A stretch of 64,000 nt of DNA from an uncultured Oscillospiraceae bacterium (lineage in GTDB: Bacteria; Bacillota; Clostridia; Oscillospirales; Oscillospiraceae), in the NCBI GenBank assembly GCA_905235655.1, contig CAJOMA010000003.1:4067-68066 (forward strand). Direction: 5' to 3'. Both the position numbers and the translations under genes were made by a program. This document shows, in pieces, positions 15,292-46,931 of the stretch. The notes beneath the pieces were generated by a model. That model ran no database searches and was not told where the DNA came from. It saw nothing but the letters and a program-made list of their open reading frames with translations. Numbering within the stretch: position 1 is the stretch's first letter; each line of letters starts with the position of its first letter.

Positions 15292-16194
15292 ATGTATGAT
15301 ATCATTATCGTCGGCGCAGGTCCCGCGGGTCTGACTGCGGCGATCTACGCGCGGCGCGCCGGAAAAACCGTCTTAGTCCTCGAAAAGGACACCTTCGGCG
15401 GGCAGGTCACCTACTCGCCGAAGCTGGAAAACTATCCGGGCTTTACGGAGATCAGCGGCAACGAGCTGGCGCAGAAGATGCTCGAGCAGGCGCTCGCGCT
15501 CGGTGCGGAGGTCGATATGGACACCGTGACCGACGTTAAGGACGGCGCAGTAAAAACCGTTGTCGGCGAGGCGGCGACCTATGAAGCGAAAGCCGTGATC
15601 ATCGCAGCGGGCGCGCGTCACCGCCGTCTGCATCTTCCCAATGAGGAAGCACTGATCGGTAATGGCATCTCCTTCTGCGCGGTCTGCGACGGCGCGTTCT
15701 ACAAGGGACAGCACGTCGCGGTCATCGGCGGCGGCAATACCGCCCTGCAGGAGATTCTGCTTCTGTCCGAGGTCTGCAGCAAGGTAACGGTCGTGCAGAA
15801 CCTTGCCTTCCTGACCGGAGAACAGAAGATGATCGACTTGGTGAAGTCCAGAGACAACATCGAAGTGATCTATTCGACCGTCGTGAAAGCCTACGAGGGC
15901 GAAAGCAGCCTCGAGGCGATCCGCCTGATCAACACAGCGACGAACGAGGAAAGCCGCCTTGAAGTAGACGGCATCTTCCTCGCCATCGGCACGGTGCCGG
16001 AAAACGGCGCCTATCATAAGGTCGCGAAGCTCAACGAGCAGGGCTATATCGAAGCAGACGAGCGCTGCATGACCGGAACGCCCGGCGTGTTCGTTGCCGG
16101 AGACTGCCGCACGAAGACGTACCGTCAAGTCGCGACGGCGATCGCGGACGGCGCAGCCGCCGCGCTCAACGCCTGCCGTTATCTGGACGCATAG
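15292..16194 (+). CDS. trxB: Thioredoxin reductase
   Basis: GAGPAG, FCAVCDG active site, GGGNTA and AGDCR motifs. Confidence 0.9.
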   Translation: MYDIIIVGAGPAGLTAAIYARRAGKTVLVLEKDTFGGQVTYSPKLENYPGFTEISGNELAQKMLEQALALGAEVDMDTVTDVKDGAVKTVVGEAATYEAKAVIIAAGARHRRLHLPNEEALIGNGISFCAVCDGAFYKGQHVAVIGGGNTALQEILLLSEVCSKVTVVQNLAFLTGEQKMIDLVKSRDNIEVIYSTVVKAYEGESSLEAIRLINTATNEESRLEVDGIFLAIGTVPENGAYHKVAKLNEQGYIEADERCMTGTPGVFVAGDCRTKTYRQVATAIADGAAAALNACRYLDA

Positions 16195-16200
16195 AAAATA

Positions 16201-16229
16201 AGATGACTTCTCAAACTGAGAAGTCATCT
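16201..16229 (+). terminator. trxB terminator; left direct repeat of MITE copy 1
   Basis: 12-bp perfect stem agatgacttctc-aaact-gagaagtcatct; identical 29-mer at 16471-16499. Confidence 0.8.
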
Positions 16230-16470
16230 CAGACTGTCAAAAGAGTCCGTAACCGTCAAAATCAATCAAACATTTTGAGTATTTTGCGCTGATTGATCTT
16301 TTATGTTAATTCGGAGTTTTTAAACTTTCGAGACGCTAAAAATGCTTGCTTCGCAAGGATTTTGACTTACTGCGCAACTTGCACTCTACCGTATCTATAT
16401 ACGCCTACGAGTGCAAGTTGCTTGTCTTCCGAACTTTTTGGCTGTCGAAAAAAGGTTTTTCGACACGCTG
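16230..16470. mobile_element. Non-autonomous MITE-like element, copy 1 (241 bp)
   Basis: Ends cagactgtcaaaa and tttttcgacacgctg form imperfect TIRs; flanked by a 29-bp direct repeat; homologous to 44522-44772. Confidence 0.78.
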
Positions 16471-16499
16471 AGATGACTTCTCAAACTGAGAAGTCATCT
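16471..16499 (+). repeat. Right direct repeat (duplicated terminator hairpin) of MITE copy 1
   Basis: Exact copy of 16201-16229, followed by tttttt. Confidence 0.85.
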
Positions 16500-22584: not shown

Positions 22585-22818
22585 AAATCGCCCTCTGCTT
22601 TCGCAGAGGACGAGAATTTCCCGTGGTACCACCTCTATTGGGTCTCAGCGGATCGTGTGATCCCGCGCTGTAACGGGCGCAGCCGTTTCCGCCTACTGGA
22701 AAGCCGTTCGGCAGAACCGCTCGGAAAGGAATTCCGCCTGTGCGCCGCCGCTGTCTTGCACCGACCGGCAGTTCTCTGTAGGCGCATTCACAGGTGTACT
22801 TGGTTTCGTCATCGCGTT
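22585..22818 (-). ncRNA. T-box riboswitch with Phe (UUC) specifier
   Basis: Minus strand shows GCGAUGA GA-motif, AGUA, AGAGA, GGUGCAAGA, GAA-UUC specifier (22731-22729), GAGCG, T-box AAUAGAGGUGGUACCACG and terminator hairpin 22589-22612 with U-tract. Confidence 0.9.
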
Positions 22819-22831
22819 TTCTATTAGGAAC

Positions 22832-23380: not shown

Positions 23381-23430
23381 ATATTGGAATTTCAGGAAGT
23401 CTGTGAACAGACTTGAAAGGAAGCGTATTT

Positions 23431-24579
23431 ATGACTACAATTGACATTTATTCCGGCTTTCTCGGCGCGGGGAAAACGACCCTGATCAAGAAGATGATCA
23501 AGGAAGCCTATTGCGGCGAAAAGATCGTCCTGATCGAGAACGAATTCGGCGAGATCGGCATCGACGGCGGTTTCATGCAGGAGGCGGGAATCCAGATTAA
23601 CGAGATGAATTCCGGCTGTATATGCTGCTCCCTCGTCGGCGATTTCAGCAAGGCGCTGCAGCAGGTCATCAGCGAGTATGCGCCCGACCGCATTTTGATC
23701 GAGCCGTCCGGCGTCGGCAAACTCAGCGACGTGATCGCCGCGGTGCAGCGCTCCGTCGGCGCTGAGGTGCAGCTCGGCTGCTTCGTCACCGTCGCAGATG
23801 CGACGAAATGCAGGGTGTATCTGAAGAATTTCGGCGAATTCTACAGCAATCAGATCGAAACGGCGTCGGCGATCATTCTCAGCCGCACCGCGACCATTGC
23901 CGAGGACAAGCTGGATACCGCCGTTTCCCTGCTCCGCGAGCACAACAAAGAGGCCGTCATTATCACGACTCCGTGGGAGGAGCTGACTGGCGCGCAGATT
24001 CTGGACGCCATGCGCCACCAAAACAGTCTGACGGAAGAACTGGCGGAGTTGATCGAACACGAGCATCACCATCACGACGATGAGGAATGCGACGATCCCG
24101 ATTGCTCCTGCCACCACCATCATCATGACCACGAGGACGGCGAGGAGCATCACCACCACCATCACCACGATCATGAGGACGGTGAGGAGCATCACCATCA
24201 TCACCACGATCATGAGGACGGCGAGGAGCATCACCACCACCATCACCACGATCATGAGGACGGCGAGGAGCATCACCATCATCACCACCACGGTCACGAC
24301 GCAGACGAGGTCTTCCAGAGCTGGGGCGTGGAAACACACAAGAAGTTCAGCAGAGACGACCTCAACGAGATTCTTTCCGCGCTCGACAGCGACGAAGTTT
24401 ACGGTATCGTGCTTCGCGCGAAGGGCATCGTCCAGTCGCCGGACGGCGGATGGCTGCATTTTGACCATGTTCCCGGCGAGATCGACATTCGCAGCGGCTG
24501 CGCCGCCGTGACCGGCAGACTCTGCGTGATCGGCTCAAAGCTGAAGGAAGCGGAAATCGTCAACCTTTTTGGAGTGTAA
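23431..24579 (+). CDS. COG0523/CobW-family metallochaperone GTPase with His-rich insert
   Basis: GFLGAGKTT, NEFGEIGID, GCICCS (CxCC) and EPSG motifs; CobW-type C-terminal domain. Confidence 0.9.
   Translation: MTTIDIYSGFLGAGKTTLIKKMIKEAYCGEKIVLIENEFGEIGIDGGFMQEAGIQINEMNSGCICCSLVGDFSKALQQVISEYAPDRILIEPSGVGKLSDVIAAVQRSVGAEVQLGCFVTVADATKCRVYLKNFGEFYSNQIETASAIILSRTATIAEDKLDTAVSLLREHNKEAVIITTPWEELTGAQILDAMRHQNSLTEELAELIEHEHHHHDDEECDDPDCSCHHHHHDHEDGEEHHHHHHHDHEDGEEHHHHHHDHEDGEEHHHHHHHDHEDGEEHHHHHHHGHDADEVFQSWGVETHKKFSRDDLNEILSALDSDEVYGIVLRAKGIVQSPDGGWLHFDHVPGEIDIRSGCAAVTGRLCVIGSKLKEAEIVNLFGV
24127..24291 (+). repeat. In-frame tandem repeat, 4 units of 39-42 bp encoding DHEDGEE(H)6-7
   Basis: Units start at 24127, 24169, 24208 and 24250. 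Confidence 0.9.
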
Positions 24580-24582
24580 ACT

Positions 24583-25518
24583 ATGCCTGTTCCCGTTTAT
24601 GCATTCACCGGATTCTTAGACGCCGGCAAGACAAAATTCATACAGGATACGCTGTGCGACACGCGCTTTAACGCCGGCGAGCGCACCCTGCTTCTGATCT
24701 GCGAGGAGGGCGAAGAGGAATACGATACCTCCGTCTATCCGTACCATCACGTCTACCCGGAGGTCGTCGACCAGGAGAGCGTGACGACGCAGGAGCTGGA
24801 AGCCCTGTGCAAAAGGCACCGCTGTGAGCGCGTGGTCGTCGAGCTGAACGGCATGCTGCAGGTCGGTTTATTCTATCAGAAAATGCCGCAGGACTGGCAG
24901 ATCGCGCAGGAGGTCATGTTTGTCGACGCAACGACAATCCTGCAATACAACGCCAATATGCGCTCTCTCGTCGTGGACAAGCTGACCGGCTGCGAGATGG
25001 TCGTATTCAACCGCGTGCCGGCAGGTATGGACATCATGCCGCTGCACAAGCTGGCGCGTGCCCTCAACCGGCGCGTCGGCATTCTCTATGAGTACGCCGA
25101 CGGCAGGATGGATTATGACGATATTGAGGATCCCCTGCCCTTTGATATCAACGCGCCTGTCATCGAGATCGGCGACGAGGATTTCGCCCTCTGGTACCGC
25201 GATATCAGCGAAGAGCCGAAAAAATACAAGGATAAGACCGTGCGCTTCAAGGGGCAGGTCGCCCGTTTGAAAAAGGAAAAGGACGGCTTCTTCGCGCCCG
25301 GCCGCTTTGTGATGACCTGCTGCGTCGAGGACATCCAGTTTATGGGGATTCCCTGTAAATATGAAAAGAGCGACGAGCTGCGCGCCCGCGACTGGGTTAT
25401 GGTGACGGCGAAGATCAACGTCCGGTTCCACTCCATCTACCGCGGGATCGGCCCCGTGCTGGAGGCGCTGGAAGTCTCCCCTGCCGAACCCGCGCAAAAC
25501 GAGGTCGCTACCTTTTGA
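24583..25518 (+). CDS. CobW-like GTPase N-domain fused to a DUF1980/TIGR03943-like C-domain
   Basis: GFLDAGKT at N-terminus with no CxCC; C-terminal GRFVMTCCVED motif. Confidence 0.65.
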   Translation: MPVPVYAFTGFLDAGKTKFIQDTLCDTRFNAGERTLLLICEEGEEEYDTSVYPYHHVYPEVVDQESVTTQELEALCKRHRCERVVVELNGMLQVGLFYQKMPQDWQIAQEVMFVDATTILQYNANMRSLVVDKLTGCEMVVFNRVPAGMDIMPLHKLARALNRRVGILYEYADGRMDYDDIEDPLPFDINAPVIEIGDEDFALWYRDISEEPKKYKDKTVRFKGQVARLKKEKDGFFAPGRFVMTCCVEDIQFMGIPCKYEKSDELRARDWVMVTAKINVRFHSIYRGIGPVLEALEVSPAEPAQNEVATF

Positions 25519-25522
25519 CAGC

Positions 25523-25560
25523 AAAAACCACCTTCACTGCTTTTGTGAAGGCGGTTTTTT
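25523..25560. terminator. Bidirectional terminator
   Basis: aaaaaccaccttcac / gtgaaggcggttttt between convergent genes. Confidence 0.75.
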
Positions 25561-42784: not shown

Positions 42785-42886
42785 TCCTATTATATCGCGG
42801 AAAAATAAAATTGCAAGCCCCGTAACAAAGAATTCATACTTTATTTCTTTGCCGCTGTGTGATACACTGAAAACGAGGTGAAACAC

Positions 42887-44488
42887 ATGATTACAGTCAG
42901 CGATGTGGCGCTGCAATTCGGCGGCACTTACCTGTTTCAGCACGTTGATCTGCAATTCACTGCGGGTAACTGCTACGGCGTGATCGGCGCGAACGGGGCG
43001 GGAAAATCGACGTTTTTGAAGCTCCTTTCCGGCGAACTGGAAACGACGAAGGGCGAAATCACGATCAAACCCGGTCTGCGCATGTCCGTATTGAAGCAGA
43101 ATCAGTTTGAATATGACGCATATTCGGTGATCGACACGGTGATTATGGGCAACAAACGTCTTTATGACGTGATGAAGCAGAAGGACGCGCTATACGCAAA
43201 GCCTGATTTTTCCGATGATGACGGCATTCTCGCCTCTGAGCTGGAGATCGAATTTGCCGAGATGAACGGCTGGGAGGCGGAGTCAGACGCGAGCCGCATT
43301 CTGCAGGGGCTTGGGATTCCCGTCGAGCTGCATGAGGACGCGATGGCGGACACCGACCCGCGTCTGAAGGTCAAGGTTCTGCTTGCGCAGGCGCTGTTCG
43401 GCAATCCGGATATTATTCTTCTGGACGAGCCGACCAACAACCTCGATATCGAGTCGATCAACTGGCTGGAAAACTTCCTGCTGGACTATGAGGACAACGG
43501 CACGGTGATCGTCGTCAGTCACGACCGTCACTTTCTTAACACCGTCTGCACGCACATCGTGGACATCGACTACGGCAAGATCAAAATGTACGTCGGCAAC
43601 TACGATTTCTGGTATGAATCCAGTCAGCTTGTGCAGACCCTGCTGCGCAACAAGAACAAGCGTAATGAGGAAAAGATCGCGGAGCTGCAGGAATTTATCT
43701 CCCGCTTCTCCGCGAACAAGGCAAAGAGCAAGCAGGCAACGGCGCGCCGCCGCCTGCTGGAAAAGCTGAGCATCGAAGAGATTCCGATGTCCTCCCGCCG
43801 CTACCCCTTCGTCGGCTTTACCAGAGAACGTGAGGTTGGCAAGGATATTCTGTTTGTCACGGAAATCAGCAAAACCTTGGACGGCGTCAAGCTGCTCGAC
43901 AAGGTCTCCTTTACCGTGAACAAGAACGACAAGATCGCCTTCGTCGGCGAAAACGAGCTGGCGCAGACGACAATGTTCAAGATACTGATGGGAGAATCAG
44001 AGCCGGACGAGGGCAGCGTCCACTGGGGCGTGACGACCTCGCAAAGCTATTTCCCGAAAGACAATTCTGCATTCTTTGAGGGCTGCGACGATTCCCTTGT
44101 AGACTGGCTGCGGCAGTTCTCCGCAAAGAAGGACGACGTTTATCTGCGCAGTTTTCTCGGCAGAATGCTCTTTTCCGGCGACGATGTGTTCAAGCCGGTC
44201 AGCGTCCTGTCCGGCGGCGAGAAGGTACGCTGCATGCTTTCCAAAATGATGCTGTCCGGCGCAAACGTACTCCTGCTCGATCAGCCGACCAACCATCTCG
44301 ATATGGAATCCATCCAGGCGGTCAACAACGGCATGGCAGCTTTCCCGGGAAATATCCTGTTCGCAAGCCACGATCATGAGCTTTTGCAGTCGGTCGCCAA
44401 CCGGATTATTGAGTTCCGCCCCGACGGGACGATCACCGATTACCTCGGCACTTATGACGAATATCTGGAATACAGAAAAGACCAATAA
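42887..44488 (+). CDS. ABC-F family ATPase (YbiT-like)
   Basis: Two NBDs and no TM helices; GANGAGKST, LLDEPTN and LSGGEK motifs; PtIM-type linker. Confidence 0.9.
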   Translation: MITVSDVALQFGGTYLFQHVDLQFTAGNCYGVIGANGAGKSTFLKLLSGELETTKGEITIKPGLRMSVLKQNQFEYDAYSVIDTVIMGNKRLYDVMKQKDALYAKPDFSDDDGILASELEIEFAEMNGWEAESDASRILQGLGIPVELHEDAMADTDPRLKVKVLLAQALFGNPDIILLDEPTNNLDIESINWLENFLLDYEDNGTVIVVSHDRHFLNTVCTHIVDIDYGKIKMYVGNYDFWYESSQLVQTLLRNKNKRNEEKIAELQEFISRFSANKAKSKQATARRRLLEKLSIEEIPMSSRRYPFVGFTREREVGKDILFVTEISKTLDGVKLLDKVSFTVNKNDKIAFVGENELAQTTMFKILMGESEPDEGSVHWGVTTSQSYFPKDNSAFFEGCDDSLVDWLRQFSAKKDDVYLRSFLGRMLFSGDDVFKPVSVLSGGEKVRCMLSKMMLSGANVLLLDQPTNHLDMESIQAVNNGMAAFPGNILFASHDHELLQSVANRIIEFRPDGTITDYLGTYDEYLEYRKDQ

Positions 44489-44490
44489 TA

Positions 44491-44521
44491 AACGGTGCGC
44501 TGCTAACACAGCGCACCCGAT
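44491..44521. repeat. Terminator hairpin; left direct repeat of MITE copy 2
   Basis: aacggtgcgctgctaacacagcgcacccgat; repeated at 44773-44804 with one extra G. Confidence 0.82.
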
Positions 44522-44772
44522 CAGACTGTCAAAAAGTCCGTAACCGTCAAAATCAGCAAAGATTTTTCGGCCTATTTCGCGGACTATGCATTTTTCGATT
44601 TCTTAAATTTCCTAACTTTTTGGTTAAACAAACGCTTGCTTCGCAAGGATTTTGACTTACTGCGCAACTCACGACCTACCGTATCTATTATACGCCGACG
44701 GTCGTGAGTTGCTTGTCTTCCGAACTTTTTGGCAGCCTGCCAGCGTGTCGAAAAAGGTTTTTCGACACGCTG
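44522..44772. mobile_element. Non-autonomous MITE-like element, copy 2 (251 bp)
   Basis: Same ends as copy 1 (cagactgtcaaaaag ... tttttcgacacgctg); shared internal blocks; flanked by about 31-bp direct repeats. Confidence 0.78.
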
Positions 44773-44804
44773 AACGGGTGCGCTGCTAACACAGCGCACC
44801 CGAT
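44773..44804. terminator. ispH-rpsA terminator; right direct repeat of MITE copy 2
   Basis: 11-bp stem cgggtgcgctg-ctaaca-cagcgcacccg. Confidence 0.8.
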
Positions 44805-44813
44805 ATTTTTCGC

Positions 44814-46931
44814 TTATTCTGCGGGAGCCTCTTCAACTGGCGCAGTTTCCTCAACGGGAGCTTCTTCCACGGAAGCAGCTTCCTCGGCGGGAGCCTCTTC
44901 CACAGGAGCGGCTTCCTCAACGGGAGCCTCATCCACAGGTGCAGCTTCCTCAACAGAAGCTTCGTCGACAGGCTCTTCCTCCTCTGCAGGAGCTTCCTCC
45001 TCTGCAGGAACCGGCACAAGCAGCGCGCGGATGGAGAGGGAGATACGCTTGCGCTCGGAGTCGATCTCGATGATCTTCGCTTCGACTTCCTGACCTTCGC
45101 TCAAGGCGTCGGAAACCTTCTCGACGCGATGATCCGAGACCTGCGAAATATGGATCAGACCGTCAACCCCGGGCAGAATCTCTGCGAACGCGCCGAAATC
45201 GACAATCTTCACGATCTTGACCTGCGCAACGTCGCCGACGGAATACTTCTCGCAGAACTGGTTCCACGGATTCATCTCCGGCGTCTTGTAGCCGAGAGAA
45301 ATCTTCTTCTTCTCGGGATCGGCCTTTATGACGAAGACCTCGATGGTATCGCCGACCTTTACGACCTCGTCGGGAGTCTTAATGCGTCCCCAAGACAGCT
45401 CGGAGATATGGACCATGCCGTCCACGCCGCCGATGTCGACAAAGGCGCCGTAGCTGGTGAGGGACTTAACGGTGCCGGTGTACTTCTTGCCGACCTCGAT
45501 CTCGCTCCAAACCTTCTCAATCGCAGCTCTGCGAGCCTCGCCGCTCAGGGCGCGGATAGAGCCGACGACTCTGCGGCGGGCGCGGTTGAATTCGGTGATC
45601 TTCATTTTCAGGGTCTTGCCCTTGAGCTCGCTCAGGTCGCCGCCCTTGGCGACGCCGGTCTGAGAAGCCGGAATGAACACGCGGACGCCCTTGACGTTGG
45701 CGACCAGACCGCCCTTGTTCTCTTCGGTAATGACGCCTTCAACGGGAGTCTTTTCCTCGCAGGCCTTTTCGACCTCGTCCCACACCTTCATGCCCTCGAG
45801 CTTTTTGCGGCTGAGCTGAACGGTGCCCTCCTGATCGTTGACGCGAACGACGAACACTTCGATCTCGTCGCCGACCTTCAGGACTTCCTCGGGTTTTACG
45901 TTGGGGTCTGCGCTGACTTCGTCATACGGGATGTAGCCGGCATGCTTCGTGCCCAGATCGACCTGGACTTCGGTGGAACCGATCGCGGTAACGGTGCCAA
46001 AAACCTTATCTCCTGTATTTAAAGTCTTGATGGAGTTTTCGAGCAAAGCCTCAAAGCTCTCCTCTGCGACTGCATCAACATTAGAAATTTCGCTCATAGT
46101 CTTATTGACCTCCTTTATAATCCACGCAGGCGTCGACGCGCCTGCAGTGATGCCGATGGTAGCGCAATTCTGATATACGGCAGGATCGAGCTCGTCCGCG
46201 CAGTCGATCAGGTCGACCCTCGCGCAGTGCTCTGCGCAGATATGCGCCAGACGACCGGTATTGGAGCTGTTGCGGTCTCCGACGACGATCATGGCGTCGC
46301 AATTCGCCGCCAGTTCCGCGGCTTCTGCCTGCCTGTTTTCAGTTGCTCTGCATATTGTATCAAAGATTTCTCGATTTGTACACACTTTTTTTACGATTTT
46401 CTTGCAAGATTCCCATAAAAATTGCGTACTTGTCGTCTGAGAAACCATTGTGACGGGCAAATCCTTATTATTTTCCGAAGAATTCAGCCAGTTTTCGAGC
46501 TCCTCTGCGCTGGAAAAGACCAAAGGATGCCTGCACCAGCCGGCGATCGCTATGATCTCGGGATGGGTCGGCGTGCCGATGATGATCGGCTGTCTGCCAT
46601 CCTCCTCCGCCTTGGCGACAAGAGAATGGATGCGCTTGACGGACGGACAGGTCGCGTCGATGATCTCGACGTTTTTTGCCTCCAACGCTTCATACGTCGC
46701 GCGCGGAATGCCGTGAGAACGGATGATGACCGTCGAGCCGTCCGGAATATCGTCAAGGGAGGAAATCTCCTTGACGCCCAGCTCCTCAAAATGGCGTACC
46801 AGATGCCGGTTGTGTGCGATCGGGCCGAAGGTCACGGTGGACTTCCCTTCCACGATCGCCTGTTCGACCAGACCGACCGCGCGGCTGACGCCGTAGCAGA
46901 AGCCGGCGGTTTTCGCTGCTACAATCTTCAC
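44814..46931 (-). CDS. ispH: Bifunctional IspH (HMBPP reductase) / 30S ribosomal protein S1 fusion
   Basis: AGFCYGV, IAHN, DATCP, TIC.AT..RQ and SSNT IspH motifs, then four S1 repeats and an acidic tail. Confidence 0.92.
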   Translation of the reverse strand: MKIVAAKTAGFCYGVSRAVGLVEQAIVEGKSTVTFGPIAHNRHLVRHFEELGVKEISSLDDIPDGSTVIIRSHGIPRATYEALEAKNVEIIDATCPSVKRIHSLVAKAEEDGRQPIIIGTPTHPEIIAIAGWCRHPLVFSSAEELENWLNSSENNKDLPVTMVSQTTSTQFLWESCKKIVKKVCTNREIFDTICRATENRQAEAAELAANCDAMIVVGDRNSSNTGRLAHICAEHCARVDLIDCADELDPAVYQNCATIGITAGASTPAWIIKEVNKTMSEISNVDAVAEESFEALLENSIKTLNTGDKVFGTVTAIGSTEVQVDLGTKHAGYIPYDEVSADPNVKPEEVLKVGDEIEVFVVRVNDQEGTVQLSRKKLEGMKVWDEVEKACEEKTPVEGVITEENKGGLVANVKGVRVFIPASQTGVAKGGDLSELKGKTLKMKITEFNRARRRVVGSIRALSGEARRAAIEKVWSEIEVGKKYTGTVKSLTSYGAFVDIGGVDGMVHISELSWGRIKTPDEVVKVGDTIEVFVIKADPEKKKISLGYKTPEMNPWNQFCEKYSVGDVAQVKIVKIVDFGAFAEILPGVDGLIHISQVSDHRVEKVSDALSEGQEVEAKIIEIDSERKRISLSIRALLVPVPAEEEAPAEEEEPVDEASVEEAAPVDEAPVEEAAPVEEAPAEEAASVEEAPVEETAPVEEAPAE

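Follow-up and report, generated by a model that had tools for sequence, protein, structure and literature searches.

Transposition in the IS1182 family is poorly understood, and the published work on IS1272 and TnSha1 describes hairpin targeting together with proposed cruciform models. These two staphylococcal members of the family target terminator hairpins with no sequence preference (PMC4923244, PMC5678879), and they delete the hairpin rather than duplicate it (PMC4923244, PMC5678879). In one branch of the cruciform model (Fig. 13, pathway b), the whole stem-loop is duplicated, and extra copies of the end sequence are known in IS1272L (PMC5678879). Another member of the family, ISPse1, makes 4-bp repeats (PMC3281130). 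MITEs of the IS1182 family are already known in Methanosarcina, with repeats of 0-4 bp (PMC3852290); those of Methanosarcina acetivorans, which derive from ISMac2, are flanked by repeats of 0 or 4 bp (PMC3852290). Group IIC introns also insert beside intrinsic terminator stem-loops, reading structure and not sequence (PMC1702495).

We analyzed a 64-kb stretch of DNA, here called the window, in which a MITE of this family is present in two copies only, copy 1 at 16230-16470 and copy 2 at 44522-44772. The preliminary description had delimited the second copy as 44522-44739 (218 bases), and the whole element is larger than that stretch. Across the copies collected in this study, the element measures 241-269 bp, that is, roughly 250 bp. 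It had also been called a MITE from the letters alone, and this name was borne out, since the element is non-coding and multi-copy, has IS1182-family ends and shows hairpin duplication. The features of the two copies are as follows.

16201..16229, plus strand: left copy of the host hairpin flanking copy 1, a perfect 29-bp direct repeat of 16471-16499 (family D13)
16230..16470, plus strand: copy 1 of the MITE, 241 bp, with the same architecture as copy 2 by alignment and fold
16374-16421, within the MITE at 16230..16470: covarying hairpin of copy 1
16471..16499, plus strand: right copy of the host hairpin flanking copy 1, with TTTTCATTT coming next
44494..44521, plus strand: left copy of the host terminator hairpin flanking copy 2 (target-site duplication), a perfect 28-bp repeat of 44777-44804 (family D14)
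44522..44540, plus strand: left terminal repeat (IRL) of copy 2, CAGACTGTCAAAAAGTCCG
44546..44554, plus strand: 5' arm of the long-range stem of copy 2, GTCAAAATC, pairing with 44648-44656 in the fold
44555..44630, plus strand: AT-rich spacer of copy 2, hard to align and the most divergent part of the element
44635..44647, plus strand: small hairpin CTTGC-TTC-GCAAG of copy 2, present in the folds of both copies
44648..44656, plus strand: 3' arm of the long-range stem of copy 2, GATTTTGAC, an apparent inverted copy of the end motif
44664..44712, plus strand: covarying two-tier hairpin of copy 2, with outer stem, internal loops, inner stem and loop
44713..44720, plus strand: T-rich tail TTGTCTTC past the hairpin of copy 2, near-invariant in alignments A2 and A4
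44721..44739, minus strand: internal inverted copy of the terminal repeat of copy 2, reading CAGGCTGCCAAAAAGTTCG on the minus strand
44741..44772, plus strand: right-end palindrome CAGCGTGTCGAAAAAGG/TTTTTCGACACGCTG of copy 2, a left-end-like and a right-end-like repeat back to back
44777..44804, plus strand: right copy of the host hairpin flanking copy 2, with the T-run ATATTTTTCG next and terminator-like on the plus strand in the scan

The element begins with CAGACTGTCAAAAAAG, which is the left-end consensus of the MITE, and ends with CGACACGCTG. The terminal motif CAGnnTGTC(A/G)AAAA occurs four times in its architecture, twice in each orientation: at 44522-44540, inverted at 44721-44739, and in the two halves of 44741-44772. 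The internal inverted copy, with which the stretch first delimited ends, differs from the IRL by 3 mismatches, and the two are imperfectly paired. The right-end palindrome forms a perfect 14-bp hairpin in the fold, and its outer half is the right terminus of the element. Two additional copies of the end motif seem to be present in the gtcaaaatc and gattttgac arms, the 5' arm doubling as a second direct copy of the GTCAAAA part. Between the ends, we defined a core of 94 nt, which consists of the small cttgc/gcaag hairpin and the two-tier hairpin with conserved internal loops. In the two-tier hairpin of copy 2, the outer stem has 13 bp (GCAAC plus 8 variable pairs, 44664-44676 with 44700-44712), the conserved internal loops are TAC and CCGAC, and the inner stem has 5 bp (44680-44684 with 44690-44694) around a variable loop at 44685-44689. 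Alignment of the two copies showed a 12-bp deletion in copy 1 that joins the internal inverted repeat to the right-end palindrome. An intrinsic terminator at 44664-44712 was considered and rejected; its TTGTCTT tail contains 5 T among 7 letters, and the scan (loop of 3-8, at least 5 T in 8) reports the flanking host hairpins only. A peptide gene in the copies was likewise considered and dropped, as only short ORFs overlap them, and the alignment contains loop-length indels and variable stems.

In both window copies, each flanking repeat is a whole stem-loop just 3' of a gene, and a T-run follows the second repeat only. The hairpin at 16201..16229, with a 13-bp stem and zero unpaired end, lies 3' of the stop of ORF 15292-16194, and that at 44494..44521, with a 9-bp stem, lies just past the stop of ORF 42878-44488 and is terminator-like on the minus strand in the terminator scan. 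The same arrangement was observed among 54 full copies, 42 of which have a flanking direct repeat of 15-38 bp that is, in each case, a complete hairpin. The repeat ends 0-1 nt from the stem foot on the 5' side in 36 and on the 3' side in 35 of these 42. Because the repeat ends sit at the stem foot, the length of the duplication tracks the length of the hairpin, and such joints are the expectation for joining at the base of an extruded stem-loop, not at a fixed spacing. The remaining full copies lie between hairpins with identical stems and different loops, or between different hairpins on the two sides. Furthermore, one orthologous gene is followed by a single hairpin in the window, compared with hairpin-MITE-hairpin in a different species (L008). 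An empty allele of the copy-2 site, or a joint skipping the element, was not seen in four metagenomes.

Further copies were gathered by scanning reference genomes for the exact 20-mer ATTTTGACTTACTGCGCAAC. At least 113 loci were identified, many of them at contig ends. They are distributed over at least 26 assemblies that bear the names Oscillospiraceae, Faecousia or Clostridiales, and among the matches listed the carriers came from human, goat, deer, yak and other guts. The carriers are Oscillospiraceae (Faecousia and relatives) of the ruminant and human gut, and the element is present in them in very many copies. Where gut metagenomes, from sheep and other sources, contained the window, the contig depths summed to 130-2700 across conserved segments of the element and to 10-20 in the flanks, a difference of about 10- to 100-fold. 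Its copy number, taken together with the flanking repeats, suggests that the element is mobile. Outside these genomes, viral contigs were searched with two conserved 20-21-mers and plasmids with blastn for the whole element or its conserved parts, and neither contained them. The blastn search of a phage collection matched the right-end palindrome only and led to a second MITE family, described below, and to no autonomous partner.

The element resembles other bacterial MITEs (Correia/NEMIS, RUP, ERIC and those of Methanosarcina) in being small, non-coding, multi-copy, intergenic and strongly folding, with terminal inverted repeats and co-transcription with neighbouring genes. Correia elements make TA repeats. 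Unlike the short and fixed repeats of these MITEs, the repeat here is a whole hairpin of variable length, and the element has an internal branch hairpin that does not come from the terminal repeats and is extensively compensated.

We then compared the ends with those of autonomous elements. Two autonomous 1.5-kb elements, L142 and L143, have the MITE consensus CAGACTGTCAAAAAAG as their first 16 nt; accordingly, the terminal sequence CAGACTGT..AAAG(TCC) agrees with both at 16 of 16 nt. Close end variants were found in L146 (CAGACTGTCGAAAAAGTCC), in ISEfa7, which is L117 (CAGACTGTAGACAAAGTCC), and in L144, L148 and L118. The transposases of L142 and L146 scored 410 and 408 bits on NF033551 (IS1182, cutoff 270), and those of the autonomous elements carry DUF772 and DDE_Tnp_1_6 domains. 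L142 and L143 are among 40 IS1182-family loci obtained by a protein-guided scan of a virus collection. In plasmids, a motif of the N-terminal domain of the family matched genes that carry the annotation IS1182-family transposase. In the virus collection, 9 of the 11 elements with matched ends are flanked by whole-hairpin repeats of 20-40 bp. The Enterococcus faecium plasmid copy L118, which starts with CAGACTGTAGACAAACTCC and ends with CTACAATCTG, is flanked by a perfect 22-bp hairpin repeat, and the Cetobacterium plasmid copy L120 shows the same whole-hairpin signature. The autonomous elements are thus like the MITE in targeting a hairpin, usually a terminator, without preference for primary sequence, in duplicating the whole foot-cut stem-loop, and in having foldback hairpins made from the terminal repeat; the right-end palindrome of the MITE is analogous to the IRL foldbacks of ISEfa7, L118, L120 and L137. 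All 13 of the autonomous elements examined have a hairpin beside both IRL and IRR. These hairpins differ in sequence, the A-run or T-run of the terminal repeat is often part of them, and such end-proximal hairpins characterize this group of the IS1182 family. The MITE differs from the autonomous elements in that it has no transposase gene, and its 94-nt covarying core has no counterpart in any of those examined. Judged by sequence, the element is evidently a non-autonomous IS1182-family MITE of the hairpin-duplicating group.

An autonomous partner of the MITE was sought in several ways. Pairs of end motifs 0.5-4 kb apart revealed none in the window or the at least 113 loci, and tblastn with two Enterococcus IS1182 transposases against the same sequences found no partner. 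Clustering of ORFs of at least 250 aa across the loci gave only orthologous host genes and no partner transposase. A metagenome pattern (right-end palindrome, 100-130 nt, P-x-D/N-H) matched 15 loci, which were MITEs or chance matches with zero transposases. The metagenomes holding the window do contain short IS1182-like pieces at 80-95% identity and IS-sized contigs of 1564 and 1624 nt, and the closest autonomous elements sit on unrelated virus-collection contigs.

Several other identities were considered and dropped. Group IIC introns are ribozymes that measure some 700 nt or more, in most cases carry a reverse transcriptase, and leave the target unduplicated; the MITE has 250 bp, no Rfam intron match, a duplicated hairpin and DDE-type ends. 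REP/BIME sequences and the derivatives of IS200/IS605 (REPINs, PATEs) are likewise high-copy extragenic hairpins. Their folded single strands are handled by HUH (tyrosine) enzymes, and they are not known to have such terminal repeats or to duplicate their targets. An IS200/IS605 or REP-type origin was rejected, as the ends of the MITE match DDE elements of the IS1182 family and its targets are duplicated. The ends are superficially like those of IS630/Tc1 elements, but the TA duplication is absent. Finally, the likeness to CRISPR-repeat-like or casposon integration is limited to the long palindromic duplication.

Next, we examined the fold. The pairing proposed in the preliminary description was verified base by base: gcaac+ttgcactc (16374-16386) with gagtgcaa+gttgc (16409-16421) in copy 1, and gcaac+tcacgacc (44664-44676) with ggtcgtga+gttgc (44700-44712) in copy 2. 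The two copies differ at five of the eight inner pairs, in each case with compensation. The cgtat/atacg stem (44680-44684 with 44690-44694; 16390-16394 with 16399-16403) and the cttgc/gcaag stem (44635-44639 with 44643-44647; 16345-16357) were likewise recovered in both minimum-energy folds. The long-range gtcaaaatc/gattttgac stem stood in part; its sequences are in both copies (44546-44554 and 44648-44656; 16255-16263 and 16358-16366), but the full stem forms in the copy-2 fold only. Both folds are far stabler than shuffled sequences (z = -7.8 and -4.2).

The covariation was then analyzed on larger alignments. These were alignment A2, with 57 distinct full copies and a 63-pair structure, and alignment A5, with 100 distinct core sequences from covariance-model matches fitted to the model's own 23-pair structure. 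The concern that two copies are too few for statistics no longer applies with these 57 full copies and 100 core sequences. The covariance model of the 94-nt core, which the preliminary description had proposed building from homologs, gave 130 matches, some of them without the exact 20-mer, and copy 1 scored 115.7 bits. In A2, where collection with the 20-mer makes columns 157-176 invariant by construction, two-sided change was observed at 25 of the 63 pairs, with 93.6% of cells paired. The two-sided cells numbered 143, compared with 27.7±4.3 after shuffling (0 of 500 shuffles reached 143) and 10-35 in slid controls; the copies are mutually related, so the cells counted are not independent events. 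In A5, two-sided change extends to 19 of the 23 pairs; paired cells make up 97.0%, and two-sided cells number 200, compared with 49.9±6.3 shuffled and 12-26 in slid controls.

The individual helices contributed differently. In A2, the two-tier hairpin shows compensation at 7 of its 13 outer pairs, with 97.7% of cells paired, and in the small hairpin at 44635..44647, all 5 of 5 pairs show some two-sided change with 95.6% of cells paired (100-sequence set). Helix 1, in which the left end pairs with 44721-44739, is 87% paired with 7 of 17 pairs compensated (A2). The long-range stem (helix 2) is invariant in the 57 copies and hence uninformative for covariation; the invariance of its gattttgac arm is largely by construction, because most of the arm sits inside the collecting 20-mer. 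Among 109 copies, the 8 variable pairs form 38 arm haplotypes, each position having at least two Watson-Crick pair types, and pairing conserved by compensated change now extends across many lineages. The haplotype network needs about 10 separate compensated steps to link perfectly paired, amplified haplotypes. In addition, the otherwise constant GCAAC/GTTGC is replaced by GCAGC/GCTGC in L039, and the inner stem switches from CGTAC/GTACG to CGTAT/ATACG on several backgrounds. These results confirmed that the internal hairpins are held paired by compensating mutations, and this observation is statistically solid.

Not every covarying stem need reflect folding. The end-motif stems (the left end with 44721-44739, and 44741-44772) would covary as protein-binding sites without any folding, and all stems could in principle be arrays of double-stranded binding sites, with one transposase binding direct and inverted copies of the end motif. 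The six GTCAAAA-like motif copies in both orientations agree with this explanation, as do the imperfections of helix 1 and the right-end palindrome, which contain C:A or T:G cells of mixed strand sense, and the fact that all end copies change together within subfamilies. It leaves unexplained, however, the 8 variable pairs 44669-44676 with 44700-44707, for which at least 20 perfectly paired sequences were found with no common motif, and equally the switch of the inner stem on several backgrounds. We consider binding-site arrays a very unlikely account of the stems.

We next asked how variable each part is, using the mean column divergence within 28 copies of the youngest large subfamily (subfamily A). 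Divergence was highest in the AT-rich spacer (0.163), followed by the loop of the inner hairpin (0.129), and it was 0.019 in the left terminal repeat. In the stems and unpaired internal loops of the core, divergence was 0-0.025. Their variability lies 5-10 times below that of the spacer, a difference in favour of purifying selection, although uneven mutation rates in AT-rich DNA and exposed loops could mimic part of this pattern. The earlier suggestion of selection on shape is supported by the compensated pairs together with stems and internal loops far less variable than the spacer within the young subfamily. The pattern points to selection on part of the sequence as well, and the constraint on unpaired bases suggests that something reads those bases.

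Pairing could also be kept without selection, by template switching in the form of quasipalindrome correction or arm-to-arm conversion, in which case the interior would be a functionless foldback relic. Template-switch mutations are well known in E. coli, and some pairs of flanking hairpins (L019, L061, L095, L058) have identical stems with differing loops, in keeping with special hairpin dynamics. The stem variants found within the young subfamily are, however, one-sided mismatches with none compensated, and compensated differences separate subfamilies, a result that speaks against rapid arm-to-arm conversion. Most of the amplified haplotypes pair perfectly, two with one mismatch having reached 5-6 copies, a pattern that fits selection on lineages still proliferating. 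The asymmetric loops TAC and CCGAC are almost invariant and have never turned into paired sequence in 109 copies, and the constraint extends to unpaired flanks such as GTTGCTTGTCTT, which are beyond the reach of conversion. Intra-hairpin conversion, which had been named at the outset as another way to keep the arms matched, is accordingly weakened, and we regard a relic maintained in this way as quite unlikely.

The main rival to a function in transposition is that the core acts as RNA in cis; with its UUGUCUU tail, the hairpin would serve as an internal terminator, as an insulator or as a barrier to 3' exonucleases, so that insertions would be made harmless, or useful, to the host. Because the element always sits between a hairpin and its T-run, it must be transcribed as a tail on host mRNAs, and the insertion geometry, with the T-run only after the second hairpin copy, forces read-through. 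The T-rich tail past the hairpin is near-invariant, structured RNAs are typically recognized by covarying stems with conserved unpaired bases, and the end hairpins of the autonomous relatives precede T-runs and resemble terminators shielding the transposase gene. On the other hand, the orientation of the element is unbiased relative to terminator polarity (T-run only in 11, A-run only in 8, both in 9) and to neighbouring ORFs (12 sense, 6 antisense, 26 convergent). The distal host hairpin with its T-run already restores termination, and the terminator scan made no call on the hairpin of either copy. Non-Watson-Crick cells comprised 4 G:U compared with 9 A:C, with no excess of G:U on the plus strand or on the other. 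Nor did the core match any described family in Rfam, a search that the preliminary description had proposed. A search for RNA runs containing either copy was negative. Taken together, the G:U, orientation and Rfam results give no support for a strand-specific regulatory RNA, and we judge a role as RNA in cis unlikely.

For the whole window, Rfam 15 at gathering score gave a T-box at 22603-22821 as the sole match, and a permissive scan of 44450-44850 returned sub-threshold matches only, mostly at the flanking terminator hairpins. A search for a promoter of the element's own found no consensus in copy 2 and only weak sites in the variable spacer of copy 1. In our reading, the core is not a free-standing RNA gene.

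The reading that we prefer is that this is the interior of an IS1182-family MITE whose core is a cis-acting transposon module; as a whole, we hold its chances to be about even. A DDE transposase of the hairpin-targeting IS1182-family group would presumably move the MITE. The enzyme would join the MITE to both feet of a stem-loop in the host, in most cases an intrinsic terminator, and joining there would duplicate the whole hairpin and leave the T-run behind the second copy. The pairing of the core would then be held by selection on the lineages that keep proliferating, the core being a cis-acting structural module that can be likened to the sequence-variable end hairpins of the autonomous relatives. 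A DNA-level role in transposition is favoured because the transposase evidently reads hairpins at its targets, and a transposase or host factor probably reads the fold, acting at the DNA level. The core would most likely be folded DNA, single-stranded or extruded, in end recognition or assembly of the transpososome; less likely, it would insulate the element when host transcripts read through.

We also examined whether the core is general among these elements. The covariance model found it only in loci of the first MITE family; it matched none of the 40 IS1182-family loci, and it did not match the second MITE family. A blastn-short comparison of the interior with autonomous elements was negative too. 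In the second family (L114-L116, L124-L133), the end motif, the right-end palindrome and the duplication of a whole hairpin recur, with a different interior that is also rich in hairpins. A third element, 97 bp long in L077, has the same ends with almost nothing between them and no core. Since the second family and the 97-bp element do without it, the core is not a general need of this type of transposase. The element represents a new MITE of the IS1182 family that is very abundant and whose covarying core is specific to its own family of MITEs. Whether the 94-nt core is, beyond this, a previously undescribed structured module behind the success of the family, either as a single-stranded DNA scaffold or as a new RNA element, we regard as doubtful.

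What the element means depends on which of these holds. If the fold is only a relic, it is an ordinary new MITE family. If the scaffold of single-stranded DNA is true, a structure-specific DDE transposase works on DNA shape at both donor and target, and if the RNA element is true, a new RNA element has been carried into hundreds of 3' UTRs per genome. The interest of the element is moderate in itself and greater as a handle on how IS1182 transposases read DNA structure. It provides a natural data set of hundreds of insertions in which the flanking repeat is the whole hairpin, of any length, with autonomous relatives of equal signature and a MITE in which compensatory mutants have arisen naturally as a series. 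This makes it possible to test directly whether DNA shape is read by a DDE transposase.

The element also matters for the annotation of gut Oscillospiraceae. It breaks assemblies, as many copies lie at contig ends, it doubles terminator hairpins, and it makes many 3' ends longer by about 250 nt of structured sequence. In two loci, L044 and L098, the AT-rich spacer itself hosts nested insertions of other small repeats.

In the window, both copies of the MITE, the non-coding IS1182-family element of ~250 bp, are bounded by a direct repeat, as follows.

16201-16229, repeated at 16471-16499, flanking MITE copy 1
44494-44521, repeated at 44777-44804, flanking MITE copy 2

The repeated unit is the whole terminator hairpin of the host, cut at the foot of its stem, and varies from 15 to 38 bp in length. 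Flanking repeats of the same hairpin type were observed for 42 further MITE copies (in the collected loci L002-L111), and the autonomous IS1182-family elements (L118, L120 and L136-L145) were likewise flanked by a repeat of an entire hairpin. For the mechanism of transposition, no other feature of the locus may be as informative as this duplication. A single terminator hairpin was found at window 25517-25560, after the orthologue of the gene that precedes the hairpin-MITE-hairpin arrangement in L008, and this position is the unoccupied counterpart of the L008 site in another species.

We also compared the two hairpins that flank individual MITE copies. The left and right stems are identical in L019, L061, L095 and L058, while the loops are quite different; examples of such paired loops are AAAC and GCAA, or AGCA and CACTCT. 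In L107, the two stems themselves differ, and the differences are compensated. Simple decay after duplication does not account for such differences.

Further elements were found to share end sequences with the MITE.

L114:6074-6235, L115:1816-1975, L116:8457-8621 and L124-L133, second MITE family, ~170 bp
L077:2282-2378, mini-element of 97 bp with ends as in the MITE, CAGACTGTCAAAAAACC...GGTTTTTGAAAGTCTG

The second family was found on contigs from human faeces that had been deposited under the name 'Bacteriophage sp.'. Its similarity to the first is limited to the end motif and the right-end palindrome; its interior is different and hairpin-rich, and duplicated host hairpins flank it too. The two hairpins flanking the mini-element are not alike.

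Another family of small repeats (GTCATTGCGAG..., ...CTGCGCAGCCGTTAGCGACGAAGGAGCG.TACGGATGCGGCGTACCCC.TGCGGGT...) is nested within MITE copies, and also within the covarying hairpin. The L084 repeat appears to have the short repeat CTGCGCA on its flanks.

L054:1634-1700, L084:~75-130, L098:2555-2690, L044, L024, L004, L108, L113 and L126, nested small repeats

The covariance model of the 94-nt MITE core also gave a weak match.

L028:2434-2530, 38 bits, divergent two-tier hairpin, ACAAC-TCGCATTC...GAATGCGA-GTTGT

The end-like sequences around this hairpin are different ones (CAGCCTGAAACAGC / GCTGTCTTTCAGC), and the hairpin may be distantly related to the core while belonging to another element.

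Other features of the window were as follows.

22603-22821, minus strand, T-box leader (Rfam, 117 bits)
23413-24579, plus strand, ORF with a P-loop N-terminus (GFLGAGKTT)
44812-45009, direct repeats spaced by 15, 18 or 33 nt, where ORF 44814-46931 (minus strand, convergent) has its 3' end

The T-box leader was the sole match in the window at the Rfam gathering score. The P-loop ORF, whose product looks like a CobW/COG0523-type metal-chaperone GTPase, contains a long histidine-rich insert with four copies of HHHHHHDHEDGEE (repeats at 24061-24324). It is followed by a paralogous ORF (24583-25518) that lacks this insert. The direct repeats at 44812-45009 suggest that the C-terminal tail encoded by ORF 44814-46931 is low in complexity and repetitive.
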